Assembly: GCF_044704955.1 (NCBI RefSeq)
Contig: NC_091987.1
Span: forward strand, 205,778,001-205,842,000
Source: Pristiophorus japonicus
Taxonomy: Eukaryota
Direction: 5' to 3'
DNA length: 64,000 bases
In this document: piece after piece, positions 1,450 to 62,666 of the stretch
Position numbering within the stretch: position 1 is the first letter of the stretch
Layout: every line of letters starts with the position of its first letter
Translations under genes and position numbers: made by a program
The notes under the pieces: model-generated
What the model saw: the letters and a program-made list of their open reading frames with translations, nothing else
What the model was told of the DNA's origin: nothing
Database searches by the model: none

Positions 1450-1686
1450 TTAGACTAGAGTTCCATTTTTTCTGTCATATTTTGCCACAGGAGTGAAACT
1501 TATTGTTGCATATTCTGTCGCGTTTTCTTTCTGTCTCGCCTTAATTTGCTTGACTGATCTCCGAGCTCCCTTTCGTGCCACCTGAACTTCAGCATAGTGG
1601 ATATTTTCTGGCTTCTTTTTATTCACTACTGCATATACTGGTATGTCGAGAGCTACTTCATCATAGGCATGAAAGTCTTCATGTAC
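1450..1686 (-). CDS. C11orf52: C11orf52 orthologue, coding exon 4 (last)
   Basis: Pyrimidine-rich acceptor ending AG at 1688-1687. Phase-0 reading VHEDFHAYDEVALDIPVYAVVNKKKPENIHYAEVQVARKGARRSVKQIKARQKENATEYATISFTPVAKYDRKNGTLV*, stop TAA at 1452-1450. Matches the recalled human C-terminus (HYADIQV...ENATEYATL...YDSKNGTLV) and is syntenic with HSPB2/CRYAB. Confidence 0.93.
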   Translation of the reverse strand, partial: VHEDFHAYDEVALDIPVYAVVNKKKPENIHYAEVQVARKGARRSVKQIKARQKENATEYATISFTPVAKYDRKNGTLV

Positions 1687-1816
1687 CTTTCAGTATAGAA
1701 ATAAGAAAGAAAATGTGATTTTGAATATGAAAGCCATTATCCTGCGGTACTGAAAAGCATTTCATTTTTATATGTTTTTACTACATTTGCCATAATGGAT
1801 GGAAAATCAGGAATAC

Positions 1817-2140
1817 GAAAGACTTGCATTTATATAGCACTTTTCATGACCACCGGATGTCCCAAAGCGCTTTACAGCCAATGAAGTCTTTTTGCAGTGT
1901 AGTCACTGTTGTAATGAAGGAAGAGCGGCAGCCAATTTGTGCACATCAAGCTCCCACAAACAGCAATGTGATAATGACCAGAAAATCTGTTTCAATGATG
2001 TTGATTGAGAGATAAATATTGGCCGGGACACCAGGGATAACTCCCCTGCTCTACTTCGAAATACTGCCATGGGATCTTTTATGTCCACCTGAGAGGGCAG
2101 ACGGGGCCTCGGTTTAACGTCCCAACCGAAAGGAGCACGC
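1817..2140 (-). mobile_element. Deu-domain SINE (SacSINE1-like), partial
   Basis: Shares the core gatcccatggca..tttcgaag..gagcagggg and the tail gctatataaatgcaagtctttc with the other copies. Confidence 0.8.
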
Positions 2141-3319
2141 AATTTCCTGATAAAGTACTCCTGGAGGGCAAGGCTTCACCACAGAGAAGTAAAAGTAGAG
2201 AATTCATTCACCCTTTAATTCCTATCATAATATTATTTAGAATTTGAAAACATAATCTAGCCTGACACTTCAGTACATTACCGAGGGAGTGACATTTTTG
2301 GATGTGCCATCCTTTGAATGAGGCATCAAAATAAGATCAATATAAGTGATCCAATTTAAAGAAGAGCATGGAGCTTTCTCAGTGCCCGAGCCAACATTCC
2401 CATAACCAACACCAGCAAAAACACATTAACTAGTCATCCATCTGATCTGTTTGTGAAATCTTGATGGACAAACTGACTGACTGCTGTGTTCATCCAAACA
2501 ACAGTCACCACATTTCAGAAAGTAATCTATTGGATGTGACGTGCTATAGGACTCCATGCAGATATGATAAGACACTATATAAATTCAACTTCTTCCATAT
2601 TTTCTTTCTTATTTTTTTCTCTGTTTAATTCCTGTGAACATTACTTAGTTGTTCCTATTGTGGTCAGAGCACTGTGTCTTCAGTTATTTTGTTAAAATGT
2701 AACGTTTTCTATGAGAATTATAATTTCATGAGTTATGCAATAATTTACCTTAAATTCTTTAGTAGAAAGGGAGCTGTGAATGTTGCCCAAGTAACCTTAC
2801 TAAATAATTATATGTTATTCTGATTAGATAAGTTATATAAAACTGAAACATTCTCTTATCGTGCCTTGCACCATTGTTTTTTTCTAACTCTTAGCTTTGT
2901 TTAGCTTGTCCTAGTTCTGTCTGGACCCAACACAGAATAAAAATGAACTAAAAAATACTTTAAATGTGCAATGTTTGACTTGCATATGCAATCTATAATC
3001 AGTCGTGTTTTTTAGTTTCCTACACAATATTTGTTACTTAAAGGATAATAAGAAGCCTGAGTCCTGAAACCTTAAAATGTTTTATGTAAAACAAAATTAA
3101 CACCAGCTAGTCTTAAGTATCTCTAACAAGTAAACATTTTGGAGATACTTTCAGGGTATTATCAGCATGCGGAAGTCTTTGGGAGATTTCACCAATAGTG
3201 AAGTGCAAGATCTGCCTCCAGCAACTTTTAATAATTGCATACTTTCTGTCTGTCAAGATGATAAACTGTAGGGGTATTATAAACTTCCATCTTTAATCTG
3301 CATTGTACATTACTATTAC

Positions 3320-3357
3320 CTGTACACGTTTACCAATTCCTGCCCTGGTCTCAGAAC
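3320..3357 (-). CDS. C11orf52: C11orf52 orthologue, coding exon 3 (38 nt)
   Basis: ttctttatag|GTTCTGAGACC...GTACAG|gtaata. Phase 1 to 0, reads (G)SETRAGIGKRVQ, compare human GSQTR. Keeps the frame between exons 2 and 4. Confidence 0.85.
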
Positions 3358-3688
3358 CTATAAAGAAAATGTTCAAAAAAAATTAGTGTCATACTTGAAG
3401 AAAACTGGAGAAACTTTGAAACTGTGATTAACACAACTTTTAAAAATGTGTCACCAAAGGTTCGGATTCCTCTATTCTATTCTATTGACTTTGAGGACAG
3501 GCCTGTCCCCAATTGAAAGGAAGTTCAGGCTTTAGCTTCACTATACGAACTGCAGCGGTTCAAGAAGGTGGCTCACCACCACCTTCTCAAGGACAATTAC
3601 GGATGGGCAATAAATGCTGGCCTTGCCAGCGTCGCCCACATCCCAGGAATAAATTTAAAAAAATCTGTTTTAAGTTTGTCAGCATGTA

Positions 3689-3723
<35 letters not shown>

Positions 3724-3795
3724 CTGATGCAGAGAAGATTAGCATGGCCCCTATGCAAGGATGACACGCAAATTCGTGACGCGTTCCATATTTTT
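3689..3795 (+). pseudogene. RNU6: Full-length U6 snRNA retropseudogene fused to a CR1 3' end
   Basis: 107 nt GTGCTTGCTTCGGCAGCACATATACTAAAATTGG...CGTTCCATATTTTT. About 7 differences from canonical U6, including ACAGAGA box changed to GCAGAGA. Followed directly by LINE sequence. Confidence 0.92.
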
Positions 3796-3900
3796 GGGAA
3801 TCAAGGGATATGGAGATCGGGCAAGAAAATGGAGTTGAGGTCGATGATCAGCCATGATCTTATTGAATGGCGGAGCAGGCTCGAATTTCTTATGTTCTTA
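3796..3900 (+). mobile_element. CR1/HER1 LINE 3' end joined to U6
   Basis: gggaatcaagggatatgg...gatcagccatgatcttattgaatggcggagcaggctcga...ttcttatgttctta matches the 3' ends of other CR1 copies in the window (e.g. 18600-18735). Confidence 0.85.
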
Positions 3901-4662
3901 AATCACACATTGATTTGTTGATCAATTTTTTTCCCTTTCTCTTAGTGGGGAAGTATCTAGCTTTTGCTCCATGTCTCTTTAACAGCAGTGGTAATATCAG
4001 GGGCTCACAACATAAGGAAGAACGGCCATGAACTTTTATCCGACTGCCAAGAGGCACAATACTTTCAAGCACCAATGTGCGATGCAACAACCCATTCATA
4101 ATGCAAACTTTAAGATACTTAAAAAAAAATTATAAAATAATTTCACAAACTTCGACTAAGAAAATGCTTCAGATCTGATAAATATATGATCATACCAGAT
4201 GTGTTCCACATGAGGATGTGCTTTAATGTGCCCATACAGAGATACTACTGCAACACTGGTGCAGGATCATCGCAGGACATAGCCTTCTAAGTTCAGCCAT
4301 GAGGGGGACACTCAAAGAAGACATTCAACAGCCAAATATTTTTGTGAATGATTGGTTCGGTACCCATGTGGACTAAAAGCCATTGTCACTGGTGGTTTCT
4401 TAGCTTATCAACATTTTCAAGGCTTTCAATTTTTTCCCTTTATTTCATTTTTGCACACTCTGCACATTTTTGTTCTCTGTTTAAAATTTTCCACTTCTCT
4501 TTTCATAAAGCAGATCATTTTGATTTGAAGCTAGAATAGTTCTTGTACTCAATTCCAGCCACCTGGTGGCACGATCAATAAAGTAAAGAACATTAACTTT
4601 CCTAATTTGTGCACAGTGACACCTAGTGGTCTGTATTGAGTGATACAACACATTTAAAGTAA

Positions 4663-4890
4663 AGAAACGCTTGCATTTCTATAGCCCCATTCACCCCTCC
4701 GAATGTCCCAAAGTGCTTTACAGCCAATAAAGTACTTTTGGAGTGTAGTCACTGTTGCAATGTAGGACATGCAGCAGCCAATTTACGCACAGCAAGGTCC
4801 CACAAACAGCAATGAAATAATGACTAGTTAATCTGTTTTTTAGTGATGTTGGTTAAGGGATAAATATTGGTCAGGACACCAGGGAGGTTT
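4663..4890 (-). mobile_element. Deu-domain SINE 3' part
   Basis: Same family tail and body. Confidence 0.75.
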
Positions 4891-5067
4891 CCTTTACAAT
4901 GAATGTACTGTACTATCAAGGGGAAGTGCTTTCCCACAGGTGGGAGCAGACTGGAGGGTAAATCACCCTGGTACATTCTCACACACCTTAAACCAGCCAG
5001 CATTGGAAGCAGGTCCTTAATCCTGTTGGGCCAGTAATGTGGATGGTATGAGCAACTATCAGTGGTA

Positions 5068-5560
5068 AAGGAGGATGAGTGCAGCACCAACAACACTGAA
5101 GAAGCTCAACACCATCCAGGACAAAGCAGCCTGCTTGATTGGCACCCCATCCACCACCTTAAACATTCACTCCCTCCACCACCGGCACAACACGGCTGCA
5201 GTGTGTAGCATCTACAAGAGGCACTACAGTAGCTCGCTTAGGCTTCTTCGACAGCACCTCCCAAACCCACGGCCTCTACCACCTAGAAGGACAAGGGCAG
5301 CAGGTGCATGGGAGCACCACCACTTCCAAGTTCCCCTCCAAGTCACACACCATTCTGACTTGAATATATCGGCCGTTCCTTCATCATCGCTGGGTCAAAA
5401 TCCTGGAACTCCCTCCTGACAGCAATGTGATAGTATCTTCACTATCGGGATTGCAGTGGTTCAAGAAGGTGGCTCACCACCACCTTCTCAAGGGCAATTA
5501 GAGATGATCAATAAATGCTGGCCTTACCAGCGAGGCCCACATCCCGTGACTGAATAAAAG
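5068..5560 (+). mobile_element. CR1-group LINE (separate family) 3' fragment
   Basis: IQDKAACLIG...KSWNSLP and the tail ggctcaccaccaccttctcaagggcaattag. Homologous to 50970-51820. Confidence 0.75.
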
Positions 5561-5612
5561 TGAATAAATAATACAGGAAAGAAAACCCACAAAAAAATTG
5601 AATCAATAATCG

Positions 5613-5706
5613 ATGACGAAAGGTCATCGATCTGAAATGTTAACTCTTTTTCTCTCTCCACAGATGCTGCCTGTCCTGCTGAGTATTTCCAGCATTTTCT
5701 GTTTTC
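5613..5706 (+). repeat. Short dispersed repeat, probably a Penelope-like terminal repeat fragment
   Basis: tgacgaaaggtcatcgatctgaaatgttaactc...ccacagatgctgcc. Related copies near 43975-44075, 48965-49130 and 54780-54955. Confidence 0.5.
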
Positions 5707-5737
5707 TGACAAATTACTGGTTTATCCATTCACTTAC

Positions 5738-5781
5738 CTGTACTGTTGTTTTTTGATTTTTTGATTTTTTTGGATTTGTTC
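5738..5781 (-). CDS. C11orf52: C11orf52 orthologue, coding exon 2 (44 nt, polybasic)
   Basis: ttttctccaacag|GAACAAATCC...AGTACAG|gtaagt. Phase 2 to 1, reads (K)NKSKKIKKSKNNST(G). Lysine-rich like the human KKKKTG exon. Confidence 0.87.
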
Positions 5782-6819
5782 CTGTTGGAGAAAAATATTC
5801 TTAAGTCAGTGGAAATTTTGTAATTAAAGTTCTTTGTATTTTTAAAAAAATATTACATACATATTTGCAGAGAACATATTGGGGCTGATTTTACTCAGAG
5901 GTCGCATACAGATCATTGCACAAATATTTGAGGGGGGGGGGGCGCGGCAAGTAGTAAGCTTGCATGTCGACGCTGCCTGAGGCTTCATTTCTATGCCCGC
6001 TCAGGGCGGGTGGGGGACTCACATAGTTTTCTTGTTTGGAGGAGGGGGAAGCCCTTGGCAGGGGAGGTGCAAGGTGTCCTTGTGGAGCCCAGAGGATCAG
6101 TCCTACTTCTCTTGACCCACAGTGAAACTTGTGGGCCACCTTGATCCATCTTCCGTCAGCTTTGACTTGGTGGAGAAGCCTCAGGTTAATCTTAAAGTCT
6201 GGCCCGATTATGTTATTGGAGCCTGATCTGTATATTTAAAGAAGGATCCGCCGGCTTCAAGCAGGTGCCCTTGCCGCCTGCAATTTAAAAATTAGTCAAG
6301 TCAGTCAAATCGGGACGGGTAGGCAGTATGCAAGTCCCCTGTTCTGGTTTGGCTGCTGCTGCATTTTCCCAACATTACAACAGTGTCTACACTTCAAAGG
6401 CACTTCATTGGCTATGAAGCATTTTAGGATGTCCTGAGAATGTGAAAGAAGCTTTATAAATTCTTTCTTTAAAACATGAGGTATCTTTAGGCTGCTGTTA
6501 CATCAGCTGCATTTATATTCCTGGCATAAATTTGAAGGTTCCTGCACATCCGTCATATTTATAGTACAATTTGCATTCATTTTGACACAGCATTAATGCT
6601 CAAGCTGCAATCTAACTGCTTCATTCAATACTTTTGGGAGCTTCTGAAATACAGAAGCTGCATCTGATGACTGGAGGTGGCGAATATTTAAAAGGGAGTG
6701 TGAACTATCAGGGAAAAATCACCCAACTGGTTTAACATTGGTGGTGGGGAAAATGTTTTGAATGCATCTTACAAGACAATGGTTATCTAAAGAGCACAAA
6801 AATCATTATAGGAAAATGG

Positions 6820-7760
6820 CAAAGTTTTATATTCAATAAATAATACCTCACTAATCTACTGGAATTCCATAGGGTAGTTCATAAAAGTTAGCTCGCTAGA
6901 ATAAAGATTAGCACAAGTGGCAAGTGGTGTCCGACAAACTTGATTTGAACTCTTTAACGGAGTGGGGTTGATGAAGGTACTGCAGTTGATATTGTGCACA
7001 GACTTTCAAAAGGTATTTGATAAAGTGCCACATAATAGGCATTAGCAAAATTGAAGGCATGGGATTTAAAGGGGCAGTGGCAGCATGGATATAGGAAAAA
7101 AAAGTTTTTAGGTGTTGATTGAGGGATAAATATTGGCCCGGACACCAGGGGGAGAACTCCCCCGTTCTTCTTCGAATAGTGCCATGGGATCTTTTACATC
7201 CACCCGAAAGGGCAGATGGGAGCCTCAGTTTAACGTCTCATCCGAAAGACGGCACCTCTGCCAGTGCAACGCACCCTCAGCACTGGAGTGTCAGCTTAGA
7301 TTATGTGCTCGATTCGCTCTTGAACCCACAACCTCCCGCTGCAGAGGCACGCAAGCTACCAACTGAGCTACAGCTGACACCAAGCCACCGGACTGTGTAC
7401 AAGAGTAACTTGGAATGGCTTAGTGTCCTTTAAAACACTTACTGCTCATTTTTTGGATTTCTTTCACAAGGTCAGAAAGTTTAATAACTGAAGATCTTAA
7501 TTTTACCTGGGAACATAAGTTGTGAAAAAGACAATAGCGGATGGTGTCCGTTAGTACAACGTATTGTAGCTCCAGCAAAAAGTTTGTACATGGAACTGGA
7601 GCCACAGATAGATAGGTGGAGATAGACAGATTTTTGAAGGAAAAGGGAGTCGAGGGTTATCGGGAGTGGGTGGGGAAGTGGGGCTGAGTCCATGATCAGA
7701 TCAGCCATGATCTAATTGAAAGGCGGGGCAGACGCATTAGGGCCAGGTAGCCTACTTCTG
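6820..7760 (+). mobile_element. Old CR1 remnants with a Deu-SINE insertion (7110-7382, minus)
   Basis: Decayed RT sequence (gactttcaaaaggtatttgataaagtgccaca) and a CR1 tail ttcttatgttcttatg near 7770. Confidence 0.65.
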
Positions 7761-8349
7761 CTCCTACTTCTTATGTTCTTATGTAGAACAATTTCCGAAA
7801 TTCAGCTGTGCCAGCAAGAGCAAGCACAGAGTGAAGGCATGGCAAAGGAAGACCCAAAAATGGGCATGGGCAAAATACACATGATCTTTGCCCAAAAATC
7901 AAACAATTATTTTTTTTTAAAATGAGAAAAATAGAATACAATAAAGCATCAGAAGTATCCATATATCATATTTTGTATTTCATGATGTTGACTTCACATT
8001 CTAATTACTGGAACTAATCTTTCCTTTGGACAAAATATCAATATTCTGAACCTATGCCACAGGAACATAATTAGCAATTGCTTTGCCTCCAGCTCCACTG
8101 GATCAACCCACAAAGGAATATGCTGCACAATTAAACCCTTATTTTGTGCTTCTTTGCCTAATTAACTTTAACCAATTAATTTTAACATATGGTACAATCA
8201 GGATACATTATGAAGACCCGTGGGATATGACTTATTTCCCACCTCAGGAGGGAACCATTACTCAGACTTCGCGAGATATCAAGGTTAGCCCACTAGTGGG
8301 ACGCAAATCATAACCATGGGACTTTATAATGTAGCCTCTACTCTACTGT

Positions 8350-8830
8350 TTAAGAGAAGATTTATGAGGATGTTGCCAGGACTGGAGAATTTTAGCTATG
8401 AGGACAAATTGGATAGGCTAGGTCATTTTTCTTTGGAACCTAGGAAGCTGAGGGGAGATTTGATTGAGATGTGTAAAATTATGAGGGGCCCAGATAGAGT
8501 GGATAGGAAGGACCTATTTCCCTTAGCAGAGGGGTCAACAACCAGGGAGCAGAGAGTTAAAATAATTGGTAGAAGGATTAGAAGGGAGTTGAGGAGAATT
8601 TTTTTCAGAGGGTGGTGGGGGGGTCTAGAACTCACTGCCAGAGAGGATGGTAAAGGCAGAAATCCTCATCACATTTAAAACGTACTTGGATATGCACTTG
8701 AAGTGCCGTAATCTACAGGGCTACGGACCAAGAGCTGGAAAGTGGGATTAGGCTGGATAGCTCTTTTTTAGCAGGCACAGATACGATGAGCCGAATGATT
8801 CCTTCTGAGCCATAAATTTCTATAATTCTA
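8350..8830 (+). mobile_element. CR1 3' fragment
   Basis: RRFMRMLPGL...LRGDLIEM and a ttctat tail. Confidence 0.85.
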
Positions 8831-9089
8831 TATATGAGAAACAAGGCCAAAAAGTTGAACCTTTACTTTTTCAATGTTATTTTTCTGGAGGAAAATGAGT
8901 GAAAATGGCCACCACTGTAATATTCTACATTTCCAGCTGTTGTGTCCCTATCCAAAACTCTCTTTCAAAATGCCATGCTACCTTTCTCCCTGCCTTCAAA
9001 ACCCTTCTAAATACCTCTCTCTTTGGCCATGCCTTTGATTTCCTTCACCCCTCCCGCCGAATTATTTTACTTCCTTCTTAGGGCAGACT

Positions 9090-9620
9090 AACAAAAACTT
9101 GGTCAAAGAGGTAGGATTTAAGGAGCGTCTTAAAGGAGGAGAGAAAGGTAGAGAGGCGGAGAGGTTTAGGCAGGGTATTCCAGAGCTAAGGGCCTTGGCA
9201 ACTGAAGGCACAGCCACCAATGGTTGAGCGATTATAATCAGGGATGTTCAAGAGGGCAGAATTAGAGGAGTACAGATATCTCGAGGGGGGGGGGGGGGTT
9301 TGCAGGGCTGGAGGAGATTATGGAGATAGGGAGGGGCGAGGCCATGGAGGAATTTGAAAACAAAGATGAGAATTTTGAAATTGAGGCTTTGCTTAACTGG
9401 GACCCAATGTTGGTCAGCGCGCACAGGGGTGATGGGTGAATGGAACTTGGTGCGAGTTAGGACACGGTCAGCCGAGTTTTGGGTGACCTCAAGTTTACGT
9501 AGGGTAGAATGCGGGAATAGTCAAGCCGAGAGGTAACAAAGGCATGGATGAGGATTTCAGCAATGGATGAGCTGAGGCAAGGGCGGAGACGGGTGATGTT
9601 ACGAAGTTGAAAATAGACAC
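9090..9620 (-). mobile_element. L2-like LINE 3' fragment
   Basis: AEILIHAFVTSRLDY motif. Homologous to 14195-14745 and 19467-20140. Confidence 0.8.
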
Positions 9621-10279
9621 CATAAACCTTGAACCTGTCATACAAGTCAGTGCAGTTTCCACAGTATGTCGAAAGCAGATGAATTATTTTCTGGTTTTTT
9701 TCACAAGGTATTTTTTTTTTTAAATGTGTATAATTACTTGGCACAACTGGAGACAGTAGACTTACAAATTTGACCCTGGTAATTGCTGACAGCACAGAAA
9801 GACTGGCAGAATTGTACCAATTCCTATTTAGTAGGTGAAATGTCATACCAGTATTTCAATAAAAGCTTTCCTGTATTGACAGTTGATGTCACTGCATGGT
9901 CACACCTCCCTCTGGATGGAGCACAAACAATGAGGTGCTGAAAATATCTGAAAGCAGATATGTTTTGTGTTTGCTTGTAAAGTTCACCAACTGTATTTTA
10001 GTGGTGCTGGAAGCGTCTTTGTGAATTGCAGAGGAGCAATTTTTTCCATGTTTCACATTGTGGTTCTTTCTCGAACACTGACAGTAGGGAGCTGGTATGT
10101 TAGGAGGCAGGTCAGTTTTTTGCTAAGCAAGTGTCTAACTCAATTTACTGCTTTCCTGGCCCAGATCAAAATCTCACATTTTAGGGAATTATGAGAGTGA
10201 ATCTCTATTTTTAAACCACTTTATGATACCATACAGTGAGTTGGTAAAAGGAGCTGTGCCATTGTTGAATGTATTACCA

Positions 10280-10573
10280 TCACCATAGGCAGTCCCCCAA
10301 AATCGAGGAAGACTTGCTTCCACTCTAAAAGTGAGTTCTCAGGTGACTGTACAGTTCAATACAGTCTCTGTCACAGGTGGGACAGACAGTCAGTGAAGGA
10401 AAAGATGGGTGGGAGAGTCTGGTTTGCCACACGCTCCTTCCGCTGTCTGTGCTTGATTTCTGCATGCTCTCGGCGACGAGACTCGAGGTGCTCAGCACTT
10501 CCTCCACTTAGGGCGGTCTTGGACCAGGGATTCCCAGGTGCCGGATGGGATGTTGCACTTTATCATGGAGGCT
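10280..10573 (-). mobile_element. RTE-clade LINE 3' fragment
   Basis: 15-bp TSD TTGAATGTATTACCA (10265-10279 and 10574-10588). Encodes WESLVQDRPKWR...CPTCDR..LYSHLRTH. Homologous to 29934-30240. Confidence 0.8.
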
Positions 10574-10865
10574 TTGAATGTATTACCAGCCAGAAACAGA
10601 CAGCTGTATATATGGAAATGGTACAGGACATTATCTGTTGTTGCAGTCTTACTAGTACTGTCGCTCACACTCTTACTCATTTGCATACCTCCGCACCTTT
10701 AGTGACAGCTGTTCTGTACATGCACAAGTTGCATTATGCAGATCACTCCACTTAAGAGATATTATTAAAATCATGATCTGGTAGGATTCAACTTACAAAT
10801 ATTGAGACGAGTCAAAGAGCTAAGTCTAAGTTAGCTTCATCAATTGAGCTGCCAGCATGTAATAA

Positions 10866-11313
10866 CAGAAAGACTTGCCTTTCACAACATCAGGACATCC
10901 CAAAGCACTTTACAGCCAATGAAGTACTTTTTGAAGTGTAGTCACTGTTGTAGGAAATGCAGCAGCCAATTTGCGCACAGCAAGCTTTACCTCCAACAGC
11001 AATGTGATAATGACCAGATAATCTGTTTTAGTGATTTTAGTGGGATAAATATTGGCCAAGACACCGGGCATAACTCCCCTGCTCTTCTTCAAAATAGTGC
11101 CATGTAATCTTTTCCATCCATCTGAGAGAGCAGACAGGGTCTCGTCTTAATGTGTCATCCAAAAGATGGCACCTCTGACAGTGGAGCACTCTTTAAGTAC
11201 CGCACTAGAGTATCAGCCTAGCTTTTGTGCTCAAGTCTCTGGAGTAGTTCTATGAACCCACAACCTTCTGACTCAGAGTCAAGGGTGCTACCAACGAGCC
11301 ACTGGCTAACACC
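10866..11313 (-). mobile_element. Deu-domain SINE, near full length
   Basis: tRNA-like head (A/B boxes), body and tail. Confidence 0.8.
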
Positions 11314-11486
11314 ATGTAAGTTATGGAGAAATTTAAACTAGCAGTGACAAATTGATAGATGCAATATTCTGGGGGAAGTGAGGAGTAGTTTTTAGTACTG
11401 AGTGACCAAGTTAGTTCTAGCCCTTGCAGTGTATCGCGACATTAAATAAGGATACTATTTTCATGTGATATTGGTTTATTTACTCT

Positions 11487-11610
11487 AGAAACATAGACAT
11501 AGAAACATAGAAAATAGGTGCAGGAGTAGGCCATTCAGCCCTTCGAGCCTGCACCGCCATTCAATGAGTTCATGGCTGAACATGCAACTTCAGAACCCCA
11601 TTCCTGCTGT
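11487..11610 (-). mobile_element. Very short 3' copy of the young CR1 family
   Basis: Matches 43460-43588, including the tail repeat. Confidence 0.85.
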
Positions 11611-12039
11611 GTGTGTGTTTCTGTGTTTCAAAAATATGTACATTTGCATTTTTATGCTTTAAAGGGAAATTATAGGATGAATTATAGTGCCAACAGAATC
11701 TCGTGTTACACAATGTATTCGCTTTATCTGTGTTTTGATAATATAAGGAACACATTCAAGGACTGTATCTGCTGGAACATAATTGTCCAACTGAAGATTA
11801 GAATTTTTAGAACAGTCTGTTCCGGGTTATTCCAAGAACTGAGCCTGCCCTGGAAATTACCCATTGCTAACTCTTTATTAAAGATGCATCTTAATGAAGA
11901 ATGATGTTTCAAAATTTCACCGTGATGACTTAAATTACACCATTGCATCACTTGTATGTAATGTCACCACAATAAAGTAACACAGAGCTCCGCTTCCTTT
12001 CCAAATGGGAAAAAAAAGAGGGCATAGATTTAATGCGAT

Positions 12040-12795
12040 TGATCAAAGTCATGAGGAAGAACCTTTTTACACAACGAGTGGTTAGGATTTGGAATGTGCT
12101 GCCTGATACGGTTGTGGAGGCAGATTCAATAGTAGCCTTCAAAAGGGAACTGGATAAATGCTTGAAGGAGAAAAAAATTGCAAGGATATGGGGAAAGAGC
12201 AGGGGAGCGGGACTGACTGGGTTGCTCTTCAAAAGAGCCGGCACAGACACGATGGGCCGAATGGCTTCCTTCTGTGCTGTACTAGTCTATGGTTCTGTGA
12301 AAAAGTTTACACAGCATGTCTAAAAAAGACATGGAAATTGTGTGTCTTTACATAGGATTACATCGGACATACGACACAGAAACAGGTCATTTGGCCCAAC
12401 CAGTCCATGCCAGTGTTTAAGCTCCATTCGAGCCTCCTCCTGTCTTTCCTCATCTAAATCTATCAGCATAACCCTCTATTCCCTTCTCCCTTATATGCTT
12501 GTCTAGCCTCCCCTTCAATGTATCTATATTATTCGCTTCAACCACTCCCTGTGGTAGCGAGTTCCACATTCTCACCACTCTTTGGGTAAAGAAGTTTCTT
12601 CTGAATTCCCGATTGGATTTCTTGGTGACTATCTTATATTGATCACCTCTAGTTTTGCTCTTCCTCAAGTGGAAACATTCTCTCTGTATCCACTCTATCA
12701 AAACCTTTCATAATTTTAAAGACCTCTATTAGGTCACCCCTCAGCCTTCTTTTTTAAAGAGAAAAGAGACCCAGTCTGTTCATCCTTTCCTTTAT
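12040..12795. mobile_element. Two CR1 3' fragments, tail to tail (12040-12295 plus; 12365-12795 minus)
   Basis: FTQRVVRIWN / FTQRVVRMWNSLP motifs on opposite strands. Confidence 0.8.
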
Positions 12796-13495
12796 AGTCT
12801 GTGAATAAATCCAATGCCCCTGTTTGTTGTTTGCTAATAGCTCCTCTGTAATTCTCACAGAACCAATACGCCCTTGTCACACCCATGGTTATCCCAAATT
12901 CTTCACATTGTTTACCAGCTGAAAACCCCAACTTATTTAGAATCATTCATTATTAACCTCAGCTTTACCCCTCCCCCCAAAAAATTCCGTGTTAAAACAA
13001 GCTTTAGACAGCAGTTTTACATACACACAGACAAACTTTTACAAAGTTTTCACATCATCTGAGTTGCAGAGGTGTAATATTCAGTTCACGGTTACTTCAG
13101 ATAGGTTAATAAAATATTAAGCGTCCCTTCATTTGAAACTTTTGTGCTTACAATAAATGCTCCATTCCCTCTCTCTGGCCTGAAAAACAGCAATGAGAGC
13201 TAAATATTTAAAAGACGAGTCAGGCCCCGGATCTCCTAATCGAGCTCATATTTCCAAAAGGCTTTAAAAAAAAGCGCAGCAAGTCTGAGCAATCTTCACA
13301 GATTTAAAAAAACATGTCTTGCTCTTGTAACTGATCAATCAGGAAATTGACAATGGAATCGAAATAGACGCGCATTTAACTTTGACAGGACTTCGAGCAC
13401 TGGCTGCTTACTGAAGTAGATCAATTGTAGGCACGGCTCCGAAAACTTTCAAAGCGCAAATAACTACGTCTATTTAAAACATTAAAGAATCTTAC

Positions 13496-13527
13496 TTGGT
13501 TGTGCAGAGGCGGAGGACGTTTCCCAT
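13496..13527 (-). CDS. C11orf52: C11orf52 orthologue, coding exon 1 (32 nt)
   Basis: gcaATGG strong Kozak context, MGNVLRLCTT+AA|gtaaga. MGN...C start as in human. Lies in a CpG-rich stretch. The four exons total 351 nt = 116 aa + stop. Confidence 0.87.
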
Positions 13528-49992: not shown

Positions 49993-50456
49993 TCAGGAAC
50001 TAGTCTTATCCTTCTGCTTCTCTGTATTTTTGTCTACCTCAGGCTCTGCAGCTATGGTTAGCGATTCAACATTGATTTTCACGTTGTTCACTTTGGGCTG
50101 GATCTCCCCTCCTTTTCTCTGTGCCTCGATGCACAGGATGCCATCATGGGACAGTGTCGTTCGCACCAGCAGAGGGTCCACATCCAGGGGCAGGATGTAG
50201 GTGCGTGTGAACTCTCGGGAGATAAAACCGTGGCTGTCCAATTTCTGAGGATGTCTTCCGGACACCTCCAGCAGGTTGTCCACTGTCCGAACTGAGATCT
50301 CGTCTGGCAGGAACTGGCAGACGTCCAGGAATGCCTGAAATTTATGATCCTTTGTTGCAATCTCTGAAAAGCCTCTGTCCAGTTGTTTATTGATCCTCGG
50401 TCGGATATAATAACCGTGGTACAATGTAGGAGCTAAAATATCTTCTGGTGACAAAC
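49993..50456 (-). CDS. HSPB2: HSPB2 (heat shock protein beta-2) exon 2, alpha-crystallin domain
   Basis: cctcag|GTTTGTCACC. Reads (G)LSPEDILAPTLYHGYYIRPR...KFQAFLDV...VRTVDNLLEVSGRHPQKLDSHGFISREF...LSHDGIL, diagnostic for HSPB2. AATAAA on the minus strand at 49753-49748. Confidence 0.97.
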
Positions 50457-50969
50457 CTGAGGAATTTATTGGAAGTTATCAAACTGTAAATAATAGAGAA
50501 TATAACTTTGATAATACATCATAGAACTGCCCTATCAGTGATATATAGATTGATAATGGTTAAAATTAACCATGGTTTTATTTTCTAATAACCTGATCAA
50601 TGAGGAAAAAATTTCACCAAACAATAAAAATAAAATGTAATTACATTATTTCCCCTGGTCCTGTTTCAGATCTCCACACACCATGGGCCACTAGTGCGGG
50701 TCTGCAATCTGGTCCCAGAACCCCCCCCCACCCAGTGCAATTTGCATTTGTACACAAACAGCCCAGGATCTGTTAGCTTTAGATGTGCCCCCTACACCAT
50801 GTAAGAAAGTGGCCTATCTGCCACTCAATGTCACCTCCCGATGGCACTGCTCAGTGATTAACTATTGGAAAATCATTCGGTGCAAACCAGGGAATAGATA
50901 AAGAATTGCAGGTAAAAAATGGCAATGGCAGTTCTGAACTGCTGGACTGAACAGTGGACTGACGCAGTC

Positions 50970-51820
50970 CGTGCCTGCATGCAGCAAGACCTGGGCAACA
51001 TTCAGGCTTGGGCTGATTAGTGGAAAATAACATTCGTGCCACACAAGTGGCATGCAATGACTATCTCCAAAAGAGAGAATCTAACCACCATTCCTTGACA
51101 TTGAACAGCATTACCATTGACAAATACCCCACCATCAACATCTTAGGGGTCACCATTGACCAGAAACTTAACCAGACCAGCCGTATAAATACTGTGGCTA
51201 CAAGAGCAGGTCAGAGGCTGGGTATTCTGCGGCGAGTGTCTCATCTCCTGACTCCCCAAAGCCTTTCCACCATCTACAAGGCACAAGTCAGGAGTGTGAT
51301 GGAATACTCTCCACTTGCCTGGATGAATGCAGCTCCAACAACACTCAAGAAGCTCGACACCATTCAGGACAAAGCAGCCTGATTGATCCATTACCTTAAA
51401 CCTTCACTGCCTCCACCACCGGCGCACCGTGGCTGTAGTGTGTACTGATACGAGGAACTGCCTAATACTACTACTACTATCTATAGCAGCAAATCACGAA
51501 GGCTTCTTCAGCAGCACCTCCCAAATCCACGACCTCTACCCCCTAGAAGGACAAGGGCAGCAGGAGCATGGGAGCACCACCACCTCCACGTTCCCTCCAA
51601 GTCACACACCATCCTGACTTGGAAATACATCGGCCATTCCTTCATCGTCGCTGGGTCAAAATCCTGGAACTCCATCCCTAACAGCACTGTGGGGGTACCT
51701 TCACCACATGGACTACAGCGGTTCAAGAAGGCGGCTCACCACCACATTCTCAAGGGCAGTTAGGGACGGGCAATAACTGCTGGCCTTGCCAATGACACCC
51801 ACATCTCATGAATGAATAAA
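50970..51820 (+). mobile_element. Same CR1-group LINE in the HSPB2 intron
   Basis: ILGVTIDQKL...YKAQVRSVMEYSPLAW RT C-terminal motifs. Confidence 0.8.
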
Positions 51821-52178
51821 ATGAATTCCCCACCATGAATCAGCATTTTCAGAAGGAGGGCAGAAAATTGGGTTAAATAGAGAACTGGACAATCAGTAAC
51901 TAACAATTTAGAAGAGTTCACTCAAGTTATTGTAAAGAACATTGACATGTGCGCACTGCTTATTTTGTCAGTGTAACCCAGTATGTTTCCTGTCCCCATT
52001 TGCAACCTGTCAGCATCTGACAATTGCAAGCCGTGCGGTTGTGCGACTAAGACAGGCTACAGATCTATTCAAGTAAATTGAGACGTGTTTATTTCTGCAA
52101 ACTGAATTTCAAGCAAGGGGAGGCAGGGTTGCCTTGTTCATACTGAAACCTTACGGTTAAAAGCGAAAATAAACTTAC

Positions 52179-52272
52179 CTTCCCCGAAGTTCTGGTCGTA
52201 AATTGTGGTCGGTGATTCCTTCTCGTATTCTACACTCATGGGATAAGCATGTGGAATCGTCTTGTCTTCCAT
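52179..52272 (-). CDS. HSPB2: HSPB2 exon 1 (94 nt coding)
   Basis: MEDKTIPHAYPMSVEYEKESPTTIYDQNFGE+G|gtaagt. Phase 1 joins exon 2, total 185 aa. Confidence 0.95.
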
Positions 52273-53959
52273 TGTAAGGATCAGAGAGTGAGTGGGAGCA
52301 GAGAAGCAGAAAATGAAACACACTCGACTGCTCTGCCTGACCCAGAGATCAGACTGTGGTCACTCCGTCTCAGAAACCTTGGTGTGTTGTTTGTGTCAGG
52401 ACATTCCTGAGGGAGGGGAAATTAGACCCGGACAGAAATAAACCAGGGCACTGAAGAGGCTGGAACCTTCCTCGTGGAAAGGGGATCTCCTCTGGGAAAC
52501 GATCGCACGCCCTCAACCATAAATAATAATTTTCATGTTTGTTCTTTGCTCGTATCCTACTGTGCATCTTTTGTGGCGTTTGCCCCAACACCAGCTTTGG
52601 ACCACTTGTCAAACAAAACTTTAGCCATTAAAGGAACATAAATAAAAGGTGTCATTTACATATATTACCAGCAACAATTCGACCATACCACGGAAAATAA
52701 TAATAAAAAAACAATCATTTAACTACATTTGGTTAGTAGGGATTTATAAACAAGTTAAGAACCCAGTAATCTGTCTGGTACTTGTCTATTTCTGTAGAAA
52801 TGACACGCATTCGTGGATCATGACTGGCAGATCGATTTCTAAAGGCATTATTCGAGGGACATTTATTTTAAACAAATCACACTGCCACGATCACCCGGCA
52901 AGCGTGTGTCCGATTTATACAATGCTCGCTTTCGAATACAATCAGATTCTTTCTCTAAGCTGACAACGAAAGGGCTGCAGCGTTCCCACTGCACTTTGTG
53001 TGGTGTCTTTGTAGAAACTTGTTTTGAATATTAACAAACCTTTTCCCCAAATGTCTTACTTGTAATTTAATGCTGTGTTTTCAAAATATAAAATCCATGA
53101 ATGGATTTTTTTAAATTTTGGAAATTAATAGTTACACTGTGACGGATAATTATATCTGCAAGCCCACACAGTAATTTCTAACTTTTAGAATATTGTAATG
53201 ACTTCATTCCTAACGAAGGATAAACGGCTTGACAATTATTAATTTATTTCAAGACAAGAACGAGTGAAATAATTGCTCAACTCTATATCTGAAGTAAAAC
53301 ATACTGGAGTAATATCACCTTGTTTTAATGGAAGGAGGTGTAGCATTTTCTCAAATAACTCACCTGTTTTGGTCATTTTTTTTGTTGCAAGATTTGCTTT
53401 TCTAATATAATTAGTCCCTCCTCCAGCCTCCTTCCTTTATAATGCTTTCCAAAAACTCTGGAATGGACAATATATGGTGAGGGAATGGAAGGACCCAGCC
53501 CAGATTATTATTCAATAATGTAGCAATGTGGAATGATACAATTCAATGGGTTCAGTGCAGCCAGAAGCTACACATATCCATGTAGGTGACATCAGAAGCT
53601 TAGCACCACTAGTCTATTTATGGACTGCAACATTTGTGATTAACATCGTCACCATTTGAATTAAGCACTCAGATAACCCAGCACACAGACAGACACACAA
53701 AGAAGCTAAAATCTTTAATCATTAATAAAAAAACTGAAACATCATAATATTCCTCCCAATACAATAGCTTCTTTTCAAATGCCATGAGGTCATCTTCGGA
53801 AGCATTCTGAAGCTCTGCCAGCAGAGGAAGGGACTGATCAGCAGGGCATTGTCCAACAGTGGAAAGACTGGCCCACTGCTTGTGTCCCTTCTAATCCCAA
53901 AAATAATAAATCCCTAAAGAATGAAATCACAGGACAGAGTCAATCAGCCTTGCATCGGT

Positions 53960-53974
53960 TTTCCAGAAAGTTCA
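53960..53974. promoter_or_regulatory. Perfect three-unit heat shock element (HSE)
   Basis: tTTCcaGAAagTTCa = nTTCnnGAAnnTTCn, about 20 bp upstream of the CRYAB TATA box. Confidence 0.8.
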
Positions 53975-53994
53975 ATGGGTTGGGTGTCATTGTG

Positions 53995-54002
53995 TATATA
54001 AA
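53995..54002 (+). promoter_or_regulatory. CRYAB TATA box
   Basis: TATATAAA about 100 nt upstream of the CRYAB ATG. Confidence 0.8.
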
Positions 54003-54098
54003 GAACTCAGATACCAGCTGGCCTTCAAGCAGCTCTCGGACTGAAGTCAGCACAGTTACACAGATATACGTCCTCCTGCCTTTCACTGAGAAGAAAAG

Positions 54099-54305
54099 AT
54101 GGACATTGCGATTCAGCATCCATGGCTACGGCGTTCCCTCTTCCCAAGCTCGATCTTCCCCTCCCGTATCTTTGACCAGAATTTCGGGGAGCACCTTGAT
54201 CCCGACCTCTTCCCCAGCTTCTCATCCATGCTCAGCCCCTTCTACTGGAGGCTGGGAGCTCCCTTGGCCAGGATGCCGAGTTGGGTACAGACTGGACTTT
54301 CCGAG
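54099..54305 (+). CDS. CRYAB: alphaB-crystallin exon 1
   Basis: [32 protein letters not shown]...[12 protein letters not shown]|gtatgt, 69 codons. Confidence 0.98.
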
Positions 54306-55184
54306 GTATGTGCTTAAAGTTCCTGTGTCCTTTTCTGTTGCTTGGCAAAAATGTTTGTTTAAAATACAGCTGAACTGCTCAAATCAAACTCTGCCGACAG
54401 ATTGCCTGTTCCGTAACAATAATGAATGTGTCCAATTGTTCTGTATGTATTTATAGATCATAAAGAGGAAGACAATGAACACATATATCACAAATAGGAA
54501 ACTAATTAACATAGATTATTAGTGCGGTTAATGGTAAATGAGAGGAATTTGTTCATAAGTTGTTCGTGTTGTCGCCTCAGTGGTGGATAGATCCTTAATC
54601 AGAACATCAAGATCTGCTTGCATCAGCAACTTGAAATATATGAAAATTAATGGGAACATTGATCTTGCATGTGTCCCCCAAGGCTACTCATTCACCTATG
54701 CATCCCACGAGGATCAAAGGCTTGGGCGCCCGGCTTTACTTTATTAATGAACATATTAATGCCCAACAGACCCAGTATTAATGCTGGGAGTCTGAAATAA
54801 AACAGGAAGTGCTGGAAATAACAGATCCAGCAGCACCTGAAAAGAGGAAACTTAGCTTAATGTTTCAGTTGAAACCCTTAGTCAGAACTGTTAAACTGAT
54901 TTTCCTCTTTTTAGTCGGTGACAGACATGCTGTGTATTTTCAGCATTTTCTGATAGCATTGCAAAACTAGTATTGGTCAATACATGACACTACGGTTGTA
55001 TCACTTTGAACAGCCCACCCATGTTAGCTGATTTCACAGCAATTTGGAAATGGATTGACTACGCAGCTCAATTTTTATGTTCCCTCGATGGTATAGATAT
55101 TGATATAGACTGGATAGATACAATGTTATTGGTATTTCTCATTAGTGAATGCTCTAAGCACAACAGTTACATATCTTCACCATC

Positions 55185-55555
55185 GAGTCTTACAGCACAG
55201 AACGAGGCCATTAAGCTGATCATGCCTGTGCCGGCTCTTTGAAAGAGCTATCCAGTTAGTCCCCGCTTTTTCCCCATAGCCCTGCAAATCTTTCCTTTTC
55301 AACCATATATCCAATTCTCTCCTGAAAGCTACTATACATTACAACAGTGACTACATTCCAAAAGTATTTAATTGGCTGTAAAGCGCTTTGAGACATTTGG
55401 TGGTCGTGAAAGGCGCTATATAAATGCCAGTCTTTCTTTTTATTGAATCTACTTCCACCACCCTTTCAGGCAATGCGGTTCAGATCATCACAATGCTGCG
55501 TTAAAATAAAATCTCCTCATCGCCCCTTTGGTTCTTTTGCCAATTATCTCAAATT
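55185..55555 (-). mobile_element. CR1 3' fragment with an inserted Deu-SINE tail (55335-55440)
   Basis: Homologous to 31800-32100. The host rejoins across the SINE tail. Confidence 0.7.
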
Positions 55556-56365
55556 GTCCTCTTAATGGTTTGTAACTCCAGTTCATCAGACTGATTGAAG
55601 GTAGACTGTATCCTTTAAAGCAACATTTACTTCAGAATTGGGGACTGATGGCACAATTAATCGTAGTGGTATGAATCCTGCTTAGGCTAATGGAAGAAGA
55701 ATTGTTCGAGGCCAATGAAGCCTAATGGTACCAGGAGAACTACAAGCATCGCCCCGAGAAGGAGGGCACAATAGTTCAAAATGGCCTCCTACCGTGCTGT
55801 AAATTTCTATGATTCTACAAACTAATAACAGAAAAAAGCTAGCCCAAATTGAATATGGATGGCTTTAAATAACAATTTGATAATTGCCGTTAGCGAAGCA
55901 GCCAATATCCGATGGTGCCCACCTGGGCAGATACCAAGATGGAAGCATAGGCAAGCAGTCGGAGATGCTCCTTGGTAGTCTCACACATCCTGGACCTGTG
56001 CACAATGGTTTGTCAGGGCCAGGAGCAGATAGTCTCTGCTGCTGTCAGGGTGAATATCGTTGCAGATGTAGGATGTAGGTTTGAATCCAACTGTGTTACC
56101 TTTCTTTTTTAAATGAAATGATTTTGTAGTGGTTTCAATTTCAAATAAGCATGCGTCCGCAAGACAAAAATGATTAAAATTTGGAAATAATGGCAACTAA
56201 TTTGAAAGCTCACTCAAATAGGCCACAAGGATGACTGACTTTGAGTAGTATTGACATTCTGAATTAAGGTTAAGTTGCATTGTTGCAACAGGGGAAAGGA
56301 AGCTTTACTCTGGATCTGCTTGATCCTGGTACTGGATGGCAAAAGCTCGGAAAATGTACTCTTCT

Positions 56366-56625
56366 AAAGAAAGAAAGACTTGAATTTATATAGCACCTTT
56401 CATGACCACCAGACGTCTCAAAGCACTTTACAGCCAATGAAGTACTTTTGGAGTATAGTCACTGTTATAATGTGGGAAACGCAGTAGCCAACTTGCGCAC
56501 AGCAGACTTTGTTATGTTGACTGAGGAATAAATATTGTCCAGGACACCGGGATAACTCCCCTGCTCATTTTCGAAATAGTGTCATGGGATCTTTTACATC
56601 CACCTGAGAGAGCAGATGGTAGCCT
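56366..56625 (-). mobile_element. Deu-domain SINE, partial
   Basis: Family tail and body. Confidence 0.75.
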
Positions 56626-57214
56626 TAGATAATCTGAGCATGTTCTGTGCCATTCTAAGAACAATTCTTCACCTCGGAATGGGTTAACATTGCCCAACAA
56701 TTTCTGTCTTTGTGCCACATAAGCTGTCTTTTCAGATGACTTTGTTTGTCCCTTGTTCTGTGGGTTGAGTCCATGTGCCAGAATGTTGTTTATGGAAAAA
56801 ATGTTCCAGTAGGATCCACTGCAAGCTGGCCAGCAAAATTCCATGGCACAGACTAAAGCTAAAGGAAGTGATTGTGTCCTCAAACATCCAGATATCAAAA
56901 CTGAATGGTTTGATGCACTTGCAGAATTCAGCCAACTCTGTGTCGTTCTTGAGCCAGCTGCCAGGAGGTATGCAGGAATAACATCATCCTCTAATATTTT
57001 TCTTCTTCTTTCTCCCTCCATCACTGAACAGAAACACTTACCCTCCAGTTGGCACCTCTCCTTCATGATGCACCAGGAATCAGATATATTTGACATCTCT
57101 GGAATCATTGGTGTGAATCAATATCATAAGAAAAGCTTAGAATTAGAAAATATGGACCATCAAAATTCAACTCTCCAGTACATAATGCTAGAGAGTTTCT
57201 TCCCATTAACTTGG

Positions 57215-58300
57215 GTTTGAGCTGATAAATGGCAACATTCGAGCCACACAAGTGCCAGGCAATGACCATCTCCACCAGAGTCTCCCCTTAATATTCAAAG
57301 ACATTACCATCGCCAAACTCTCCACCATCAACATCCTGGGGCTTGTCAATTGGACCAACCAAATAAATGCCATAGCTACTAGAGGAGGTCAGAGGCAGGA
57401 TATTCTGTGGTGAGTGGCTCAATGCTGGACTCCCCAAAGCCTCTCCACCTACAAGGCACAAGTCAGGAGTGTGGTAGAATACTCGCTTCATACGTGGACG
57501 ATCCAGGACAAAGCAATCCGCTTGATCGTCACTCCATCCACCACCTTAAAAATCAACTCCCTCTACCACCGGTGCACCATGTATCTGTCTGTACTATCTA
57601 CAGGATGCACTGCAGCAACTCGCCAAGGCTTTATCGACAGCACCTCCCATGTAGAAAAAAACTACGAACGACTAGAAAATGTGCAACTCTAATCTTAACA
57701 GCACATAATTGCATTTTGAATAACCCCAATATTTTTGTCTCCATTAACTTGCTTGATGATTATTCCAAATGTTCATCGGGCTTTAGTTTATCTCCCTATT
57801 TGTTTTAAATTTGCCTTTCACTCAGCTACACTTATACCCAACTTTCTTGCTGGGTTTTCCTGTGTCATGGTGCAGCCTTTTGGTTATCCACTCTTTATTT
57901 TTATTCGTTTTCCAGATAGGTGTGTCACTAGCAAGGCCAGGATTTATCGCCATCTCAAATTGGCCTTGGGAAGGTGGTGGTGAACTGCCTTCTTGAACCA
58001 GTGCAGTCCGTGTGGTGAAGCTACTCCCACAGTGCTGTTAGGGAGGGAGTTGCAGGATTTTGACCCAGTGATGAAGAAGGAACGACCGATATATTTCCAA
58101 GTCAGGATGGTGTGTGACTTGAAGGGGAACTTGGAGGTGATGGTGTTCCCATGCACCTTCTGCCCGTGTCCTTCTAGGTGGTAGAGCTCGCGGCTTTGGG
58201 AGGTGATGTCGAAGAAGCCTTGGCGAGTTGCTACAGCGCAATCCTGTAGATAGTACACACTGTGTGTGTTGATGGTGAAGTGAGTGGACGTTTACCTTAA
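57215..58300. mobile_element. Two fragments of the same CR1-group LINE (57215-57650 plus; 57905-58300 minus)
   Basis: YKAQVRSVVEYS on plus; WEHHHLQVPLQV on minus. Confidence 0.7.
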
Positions 58301-59094
58301 TCAATGGGGTATATTCTACAAATTCGCACTCCCTGTGCAATGTGTATCAGGAATTCGAGCATGGAGGTCAGCAGCACGCAACGATTTTCTTTCGAGCCGG
58401 AATTCCTGATATGCACTTCCGTTGCACAAAGTTCTGCATCAGGAGCGCTAACTCACAGAATCTAGAATCTGTAAGCTCCAACGTTTCAGATCAGCGCTGT
58501 TTCATTTGATGGGGAGGAAATTTAACGTTTTTGTACTGGAGAATGAAAATACCCCTGTTCTCACAGAAAGTATATTTAAGAAAACAGTCAAGAGACTGAA
58601 TGATCCATCTTAAAAAATCTATGCAACTTCTGAGAGGCTGGTGCTTGGAGGTTTATATGGCTGTAGGTTGTATTAGACATATATCATTCACAAAAGATTA
58701 TTAAAGTGTTTTGTAAAAGCTTTAGTCCAAGTTTACTGGGAAATGGCACTTTTTTCGTTGTTAATTACAGGTTGTATGCATGCAGTATATATTATGTGAC
58801 CAGTTACAAAGGAAAATATAATGTGCTCTTTCAGCCACGATGGTTGAGACATACAGCTCGTGAAAAGTTGACCAGATGTTTACCCTGATCTTGCAAATTG
58901 ACTTCTGATTGAGCAAAACTGAAACAATTTCCAGAGAGAGATAGCAATGTCATTAGTGTTGAGCCACAGACATTCATGATCCCAGTTCTGGTTTGTCATT
59001 TTATCACCATAATATTGATGACAAGAAAAAAGCTTAGGAATTTGGCAGCGAGCGTCTGATTCTTAACTAAGCATATGTGCTCTATCTCTTGCAG

Positions 59095-59217
59095 TTGAGA
59101 CTGGACAAGGATAAATTTGCAATTCACCTTGATGTTAAACACTTCACTCCTGAAGAACTGCGAGTCAAAATTCTGGGAGACTTTATTGAAGTCCAAGCTC
59201 AACATGAAGAACGTCAG
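59095..59217 (+). CDS. CRYAB: alphaB-crystallin exon 2
   Basis: ctcttgcag|[41 protein letters not shown]|gtacat, 41 codons. Confidence 0.98.
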
Positions 59218-59573
59218 GTACATTTTAATATTTCCCCTTCACCCCCTATTTTTATAGCACCTTAGACTTTCCCTGTGTTTGCAGTCACTTTCGTTAGCAG
59301 GGAGAGCTTCATAGAGCATTCAGTGCAAAGGCTGGTCTGGATTTAAATTGTAGGAGTCGCACTTTGAGTGAGAGGAAGATAAATTACATGCCACTCCCTG
59401 CACAAGGTGCTGAGTTGGCTGGGACCAGAAACGTCCATAGCCAGTGGTTAAAAATCTCATCCCCCATTGTGACTTGAAGCTAGGGCTATAACCAGATTTC
59501 AACATCATCTGAAGCAATACACATCAAACCAGGCCCTTACAATTTTGAACAGAAGAAAAGGTTTTGCAACTAA

Positions 59574-62155: not shown

Positions 62156-62462
62156 AGAAAAATTTCTACACTAAGCTGTCTCACTTAAAGGGAGCAGAGA
62201 GTGACTGACTTTATTTGCACTGTTTTGTGGCCTTCACCTTGCATTTTGAAGCATCCAGAAACTTTCAGAACTATACCAACCATGAATGAGAAATCCCACA
62301 ATATCTGAGCAACTTGGATTGTCCGGAATTTGACCTTACTGTCAGTGTATTCCACTTTTTTACAAAATGGTAAAACGAAAGAAAATGGAATATCTTTTTT
62401 CAGACAATCCTTGCAAGGACTGAGCGACCACCACTTTTAATACTCACTCTTTTATTCTGCAG

Positions 62463-62666
62463 GATGAACATGGCTATGTTTCTAGGGAATTTCACCGGAA
62501 GTACAAGGTCCCAGCAGGAGTTGATCCGGCTCTGATCACTTGCTCCCTGTCTGCAGATGGGGTTCTTACGATCACTGGTCCCAGGAAGGTGGCTGATGTC
62601 CCTGAGCGATCTGTGCCCATCTCCCGAGAGGAAAAGCCCGCAGTCGCTGGGCCTCAGCAAAAGTAG
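62463..62666 (+). CDS. CRYAB: alphaB-crystallin exon 3
   Basis: ttctgcag|[67 protein letters not shown]. Total 177 aa. Confidence 0.98.

Follow-up and report, generated by a model that had tools for sequence, protein, structure and literature searches.

HGAL (GCSAM) is an adaptor without a transmembrane segment, and it carries a myristoylated Gly2, a palmitoylated Cys, a polybasic cluster, four phosphotyrosine sites, and a PDZ ligand (PMC11518702). We analyzed a 64,000-nucleotide stretch of the Pristiophorus japonicus genome (contig NC_091987.1; hereafter the window) which contains the C11orf52 gene of this shark. Its product shares with HGAL and C1ORF150/GCSAML the receptor-less, polybasic, phosphotyrosine-bearing layout with a C-terminal PDZ ligand, and acylation of C11orf52 is predicted. 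HGAL recruits GRB2 (YENV) and SYK in B cells, whereas C11orf52 has SHP-type and Csk-type sites instead. The tail of PD-1 also has an ITIM (immunoreceptor tyrosine-based inhibitory motif) followed by TEYAT[IL]xF; C11orf52 differs in that it lacks an ectodomain and a transmembrane segment, carries Ala at ITIM +1, a residue that promotes SHP1 recruitment in PD-1, and has further tyrosines along with a PDZ tail. PAG/Cbp, LIME, and SIT1 are unfolded scaffolds at the membrane, with sites of the Src-SH2 and Csk kinds, but each of them has a transmembrane helix. The EPIYA region of Helicobacter pylori CagA is disordered; in it, a segment that binds Csk precedes one that binds SHP2 and has Phe at +5, and Tyr56 and Tyr97 of the shark protein resemble these two. 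CagA is a bacterial effector, and the likeness concerns short motifs only, with no homology claimed.

The gene in the window is the single-copy shark orthologue of human C11orf52 (DUF4578), as shown by the Pfam match of its last exon (PF15147, 57.4 bits; gathering cut-off 27), the identity of its 116-residue product to an annotated protein (P0001, source name C11orf52), and the CRYAB-HSPB2-C11orf52 synteny. The last exon has one match in the genome assembly. Both the gene and the adaptor design of HGAL/GCSAM are already known. The initial annotation, made from the letters of the window, had read the product as a receptor-less, lipid-anchored adaptor; the motifs that it described are present, and a design of this kind is not new. 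The absence of a transmembrane segment is borne out by a highest 19-residue hydropathy of 0.44, and none of 86 full-length relatives exceeds 1.6. The Atlas model has a predicted template modelling score of 0.17; our search found no related solved structure, and the Atlas structure matches reached template modelling scores of 0.32 at most. We think it probable that C11orf52 is a disordered adaptor, anchored by a lipid, to which SHP2/SHP1 is recruited bivalently in the vicinity of PDZ scaffolds.

Tandem tyrosine sites and their fit to SHP2

Our searches gave 14 proteins, 51 proteins, and a list of 302 from which the best 120 were taken. These were merged into a set of 163 relatives; 182 of the 302 matches are outside this set, and some records are unnamed. 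One unnamed record (P0057) was rejected as a non-homologous tyrosine kinase and is out of all counts. Named relatives come from sharks, rays, chimaera, bichir, gar, teleosts, coelacanth, lungfish, amphibians, reptiles, birds, and mammals, in agreement with the ancient jawed-vertebrate gene that had been suggested, and the named matches listed include none outside jawed vertebrates.

The ITIM at Tyr69, which fits the definition (S/I/V/L)xYxx(I/V/L), and the T-x-Y-A-x-[ILV] site at Tyr97 are present in every relative. They are 28 residues apart in the shark protein, as first described, and in 143 of the 163 relatives, with an overall range of 26-31. Conservation was tested on 22 sequences of less than 70% identity drawn from the 86 full-length ones. 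The motifs named by the initial annotation had a mean conservation of 0.85 versus 0.44 elsewhere, a gap reached by none of 114 circular shifts, although for Gly2 the test is circular, the sequences having been selected by an MG start. The region around Tyr97 is the most conserved part (0.85 versus 0.77). When the protein was shuffled 200,000 times, an ITIM arose in 19.9% of the shuffles, an ITSM (immunoreceptor tyrosine-based switch motif) in 5.1%, both in 0.8%, and both together with a C-terminal class I PDZ ligand in 0.0175%. One motif by itself is weak evidence, which cannot be said of the combination or of its conservation.

An ITSM can bind either SAP/EAT-2 or SHP and switches from one to the other. 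Tyr97 of the shark protein fits the strict form TxYxx(V/I), which most of the family lacks. Of 109 orthologues grouped by the name given in their source, 19 have this form and 90 have Leu at +3. The strict form is found in 13/13 chondrichthyans, 2/2 caecilians, and 4/4 marsupials, and in none of 25 lepidosaurs, 44 archosaurs, and 21 placentals. A SAP-type switch is therefore unsupported, and the pair is better described as a tandem SHP site.

The five tyrosines were scored with the display matrix of the SHP2 C-SH2 domain (PMC10065799, supplement 6), whose values are rounded and whose Tyr row was zeroed, against 400,000 random peptides of background composition. Tyr97 scored 2.96, a value reached by 0.01% of random peptides, followed by Tyr69 (2.17; 0.27%) and Tyr56 (1.24; 3.3%), while Tyr46 (-0.45; 48%) and Tyr108 (-0.94; 71%) were at background level. 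PD-1 pY248 scored 2.83, on a par with Tyr97, which supports the PD-1 likeness noted at the outset. The PD-1 pY248 peptide, which binds the C-SH2 domain with an affinity of 79 nM (PMC11287265), is identical to the Tyr97 site at -2 to +3 and at +5, and the vertebrate PD-1 consensus is (T/V)EYATIx(F/Y) (PMC12151841). Of the CagA peptides, the one carrying Phe at +5 shows about 30-fold tighter N-SH2 binding than the one lacking it (PMC11287265). The N-SH2 domain prefers Ile, Leu, or Val at -2 and His at -1 (PMC11287265), and Tyr69 carries preferred residues at both positions. PD-1 uses its ITSM for C-SH2 and its ITIM for N-SH2, and Ala at ITIM +1 favours SHP1 (PMC12151841). The spacing of human Tyr78 and Tyr103 (25) equals that of PD-1 Tyr223 and Tyr248. 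None of the C11orf52 sites was seen in the readable parts of two SH2 display screen supplements, a partial coverage that implies no absence.

Upstream tyrosines, C-terminus, and origin

The initial annotation had overlooked a Csk-type site at Tyr56. It resembles the Csk site YSSV of PAG (PMC3492796) and the Csk-binding EPIYA-A segment (PMC3593179, PMC6953880). The motif is kept in 125 of 163 relatives, and its distance to the ITIM varies from 13 to 21. In the form P-x-Y-[AS]-x-[VI]-x-K it occurs in 13/13 chondrichthyans, 25/25 lepidosaurs, 38/44 archosaurs, 2/2 caecilians, and 15/15 further named fishes and amphibians, and in 0/25 therians and 0/2 further afrotherians (therian total 0/27; the mammals sampled include no monotreme). 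A review of EPIYA segments states that EPxYAxV is under-represented in mammalian proteomes; the therian loss of Tyr56 agrees with this, though it is one case only. The shark form keeps both this site and Ile at +3 of Tyr97, which are changed in placentals. Csk may be recruited at Tyr56 outside therians, which is less certain than the tandem SHP reading. As a separate observation, the tail of the tyrosine kinase P0057 has repeated P-V-Y-A-T-V-N-K motifs resembling the Tyr56 motif.

These upstream sites raise the alternative that C11orf52 is mainly a PAG/Cbp-like regulator of Src kinases, with Tyr46 docking Src-family SH2 domains, Tyr56 docking Csk, and the downstream tyrosines docking other SH2 proteins. 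The retention of both motifs (152/163 for Tyr46) and the YEEI/V and YSSV sites of PAG (PMC3492796) are in its favour, as is the likeness of Tyr56 to EPIYA-A (PMC6953880). We regard it as unlikely, since Tyr56 is absent in 25/25 named marsupials and placentals as well as in 2/2 further afrotherians, whereas Tyr69 and Tyr97 are never lost and have the best SHP2 fit. A bolder form of the SHP2 reading is that C11orf52 would be a built-in epithelial scaffold of the layout mimicked by H. pylori CagA, namely disordered, tethered to the membrane, placed at polarity PDZ proteins, and with a Csk site preceding a tandem SHP2 site of high affinity. In this form it would act as an unrecognised receptor-independent SHP2 activator whose Csk arm was removed in therian mammals. 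We consider this a rather speculative proposal, with the odds against it.

The proposed class I PDZ ligand is present as an S/T-x-hydrophobic C-terminus, and a human C-terminal peptide binds Scribble PDZ3 in vitro at 26.5 μM, with no binding to PDZ1 or PDZ2 (PMC3189207). The GTLV end is kept in bichirs despite a long insertion but is missing in the three named teleosts, which retain all SH2 motifs; the ligand is not universal. In bichir and reedfish (P0033, P0166), about 240 low-complexity residues lie between the SHP2 site and the GTLV end. The Scribble binding, the retention of GTLV beyond this insertion, and a second-hand report on desmoglein-1 and Wnt would also fit a junction- or desmosome-associated PDZ ligand in Wnt signalling whose phosphotyrosines are secondary or regulate localisation. 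The three teleosts and the peak of conservation around Tyr97 make this reading unlikely in our judgment.

The nearest Atlas neighbours are HGAL clusters at 0.82-0.88, under the 0.9 bar. P0001 does not match the HGAL family (PF15666), three of 51 relatives reach only 14.7-15.7 bits versus a cut-off of 27, and none of the five tyrosines has the Asn at +2 of a GRB2 site (YxN). C11orf52 is thus HGAL-like in layout but carries a predicted SHP/Csk cassette, and these scores do not establish homology to HGAL. Regarding origin only, C11orf52 could be a cytoplasmic tail that became detached from an inhibitory receptor of the immunoglobulin family, or else a remote paralogue of HGAL. A shark immunoglobulin receptor (P0181) shares three motifs with it, arranged in the same order, with an hhalign probability of 92.9 over 34 columns, and the HGAL clusters are the next Atlas matches. 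On the other side, P0181 has only an E-value of 2.1 in the database search, the weak HGAL matches are confined to those three proteins, and the last exon of the receptor copies in this genome appears to begin 7 codons before the ITIM and to lack the upstream motifs. Among 8000 longer candidates scored, the only proteins with C11orf52 similarity were an HSPB2 readthrough model and P0181, and no receptor-fused form was found, a weak negative. Shared ancestry with shark receptor tails was considered and left unsupported, and either origin seems improbable to us; the likeness is explained by convergence on SH2 specificity.

Relatives of P0181 form a multicopy receptor family at L004-L009 and further places on C9 and unplaced contigs of the assembly (G000), with 18 matches to the last exon (ITIM and ITSM-like motif) and 19 to the transmembrane exon. 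This family resembles an expanded shark inhibitory-receptor cluster, and some copies may be assembly duplicates.

Proposed mechanism and data on the mammalian protein

In the tandem SHP reading, the small unfolded protein would be held at the inner membrane face by an N-terminal myristoyl group, the basic patch, and a palmitoylated Cys where present, and the GTLV end would tether it to PDZ scaffolds. Membrane tyrosine kinases, probably of the Src family, would phosphorylate Tyr69 and Tyr97. SHP2 would then dock bivalently as it does on PD-1, its C-SH2 domain engaging pY97 and its N-SH2 domain pY69, and the phosphatase would be opened at the membrane; the fixed tandem spacing suits such an opening. 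SHP1 may use the ITIM too. Outside therians, Tyr56 may be a Csk site, so that the ancestral protein would restrain Src kinases in addition to recruiting SHP2. The lipid anchoring, the identity of the kinase, and the bivalent recruitment of SHP2/SHP1 are the steps that we infer.

Published data place human pY103 at the PD-1-like site and pY78 at the ITIM (PMC4102909), and the peptides agree with the human segments that the initial annotation had given. Both sites are detected in lung tissue; of the sites lowered in lung tumours, pY103 holds 4th place (ratio 0.13) and pY78 16th place (ratio 0.09; PMC2777383). After 90 min with wild-type H. pylori, the log2 ratios of pY103 and pY78 were -1.12 and -1.01, compared with 0.00 and -0.30 without cagA, and Src-family activation-loop peptides fell in step (-1.43 and -1.06; PMC4102909). 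PyMT tumours show increased phosphorylation of the mouse orthologue (PMC4303118). The protein was also recovered in urinary vesicles (PMC10296596, PMC10298883), and the published detections reviewed here come from epithelial cells, tissues, and vesicles.

Several points weigh against the tandem SHP reading. The lipid anchor is its weakest link for the shark protein. Gly2, Cys8, and the polybasic patch are all where the initial annotation had placed them (11 Lys/Arg versus 1 Asp/Glu in residues 1-40), as are the five tyrosines. Of the 13 chondrichthyan N-termini, 12 do not match the PROSITE myristoylation pattern, compared with 7 of 79 others (72/79 fit), and 11 of the 13 have Arg at position 6. 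A Cys within residues 2-12 is present in 14 of 22 non-redundant sequences and is missing in frogs and ray-finned fishes, and a usable MG start was available in only 92 of 163 records. The display matrix is additive and describes a single SH2 domain, and known SHP2 sites score low on it (Gab1 pY627, 0.26; PD-1 pY223, 0.75), so that the matrix does not predict all binding and a site with a low score may still bind. Loss of the Src site of CSF-1R left human pY78 unchanged (ratio 0.92), as it did many Src targets according to the authors (PMC2964295). The PDZ binding is weak, and 38 of 56 test peptides bound to PDZ3 (PMC3189207). The sole dedicated interaction study, by affinity purification and known second-hand, points to desmoglein-1/Wnt. 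Our literature search, which left most subscription journals outside, found no SHP2, SHP1, Csk, or lipid attachment to C11orf52, although proteomics supplements may list one, and no paper proposing an SHP/Csk-docking role; one paper that also names SHP2 does not link the two, and one containing 'myristoyl' has it in an unrelated context.

C11orf52 could instead be a decoy or substrate of SHP1/2, or a soluble protein. Neither a catalytic nor a folded domain is present, the N-terminus in sharks matches the myristoylation pattern poorly, and phosphatase action could also account for the CagA-dependent fall of human phosphotyrosine. The constant tandem spacing, the Asn directly after Gly2 in 83 of 92 MG starts, and the urinary vesicle recovery make this quite improbable.

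Gene structure, neighbourhood, and significance

The coding sequence has 351 nt in four minus-strand exons, and all introns have GT-AG ends with phases 2, 1, and 0. Its predicted translation is exactly the 116-residue product stated in the initial annotation. The putative exon junctions have indirect support, as all 14 cartilaginous-fish matches align unbroken across them, one of these from a 1.5-kb contig. Three sequencing runs contain the last exon, none of them listed as RNA. The feature positions are given below; the Tyr codons start at nt 1665 (Tyr46), 1635 (Tyr56), 1596 (Tyr69), 1512 (Tyr97), and 1479 (Tyr108).

Features of C11orf52 and its neighbours, in window positions
Feature	Position	Strand	Remarks
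Coding exon 1	13496..13527	-	32 nt; start codon, Gly2 (13524-13522), Cys8 (13506-13504); GT donor, phase 2; predicted acylation anchor
Coding exon 2	5738..5781	-	44 nt; lysine-rich basic patch; AG/GT, phase 1
Coding exon 3	3320..3357	-	38 nt; variable linker; AG/GT, phase 0
Coding exon 4	1450..1686	-	237 nt including TAA stop; all five tyrosines; Pfam PF15147 DUF4578
Tyr46 motif Y-D/E-x-V	1654..1665	-	152/163 relatives; resembles Src-family SH2 sites (YEEI/V) of PAG/Cbp; putative binding
Tyr56 motif P-x-Y-A-x-V-x-K	1618..1641	-	Csk-type site; absent in therian mammals; putative binding
Tyr69 ITIM (human pY78)	1585..1602	-	163/163; His at -1 in 149, Gln in 12
Tyr97 PD-1-type SHP2 C-SH2 site T-E-Y-A-T-I/L-x-F (human pY103)	1495..1518	-	163/163; Phe at +5 in 158
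Tyr108...G-T-L-V class I PDZ ligand	1453..1479	-	GTL[VI] ends 153/163
HSPB2 neighbour	50071..50361	-	alpha-crystallin domain; synteny marker
CRYAB neighbour	62460..62624	+	part of alpha-crystallin domain; synteny marker

C11orf52 lies downstream of HSPB2 on the same strand, with CRYAB beside it, and HSPB2 and CRYAB are divergent at 50071-62624. A human HSPB2-C11orf52 readthrough at 11q23.1 implies a matching gene order (PMC5793191). A second DUF4578 match in the assembly (E 0.57) was rejected as a paralogue, being merely a lysine-rich stretch. HGAL and CFAP68 family searches of the assembly gave no match and were uninformative. Elsewhere in the assembly, eleven small heat-shock (HSP20) domain matches lie within about 90 kb (C21:5.91-5.99 Mb). 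Dispersed repeat copies, 75-88% alike and probably fragments of short or long interspersed nuclear elements, are intronic at window positions 1828-2132, 4688-4885, 7104-7220, and 10879-11165.

Human C11orf52 is a conserved protein; two of its phosphotyrosines have been detected repeatedly, and the literature searched assigns it no mechanism. The likeness of the shark protein to the inner tail of a checkpoint receptor leads to a direct test of the role of the human protein, which would be cheap with peptides and point mutants. If the proposal is true, epithelia possess a small receptor-independent docking platform for SHP2/SHP1 with a PD-1-grade site. This would bear on SHP2 activation at junctions and on the phosphoproteomes in which these sites fall, such as those of lung tumours and CagA-positive infection. 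The therian loss of the Csk-type site would then be a natural experiment.

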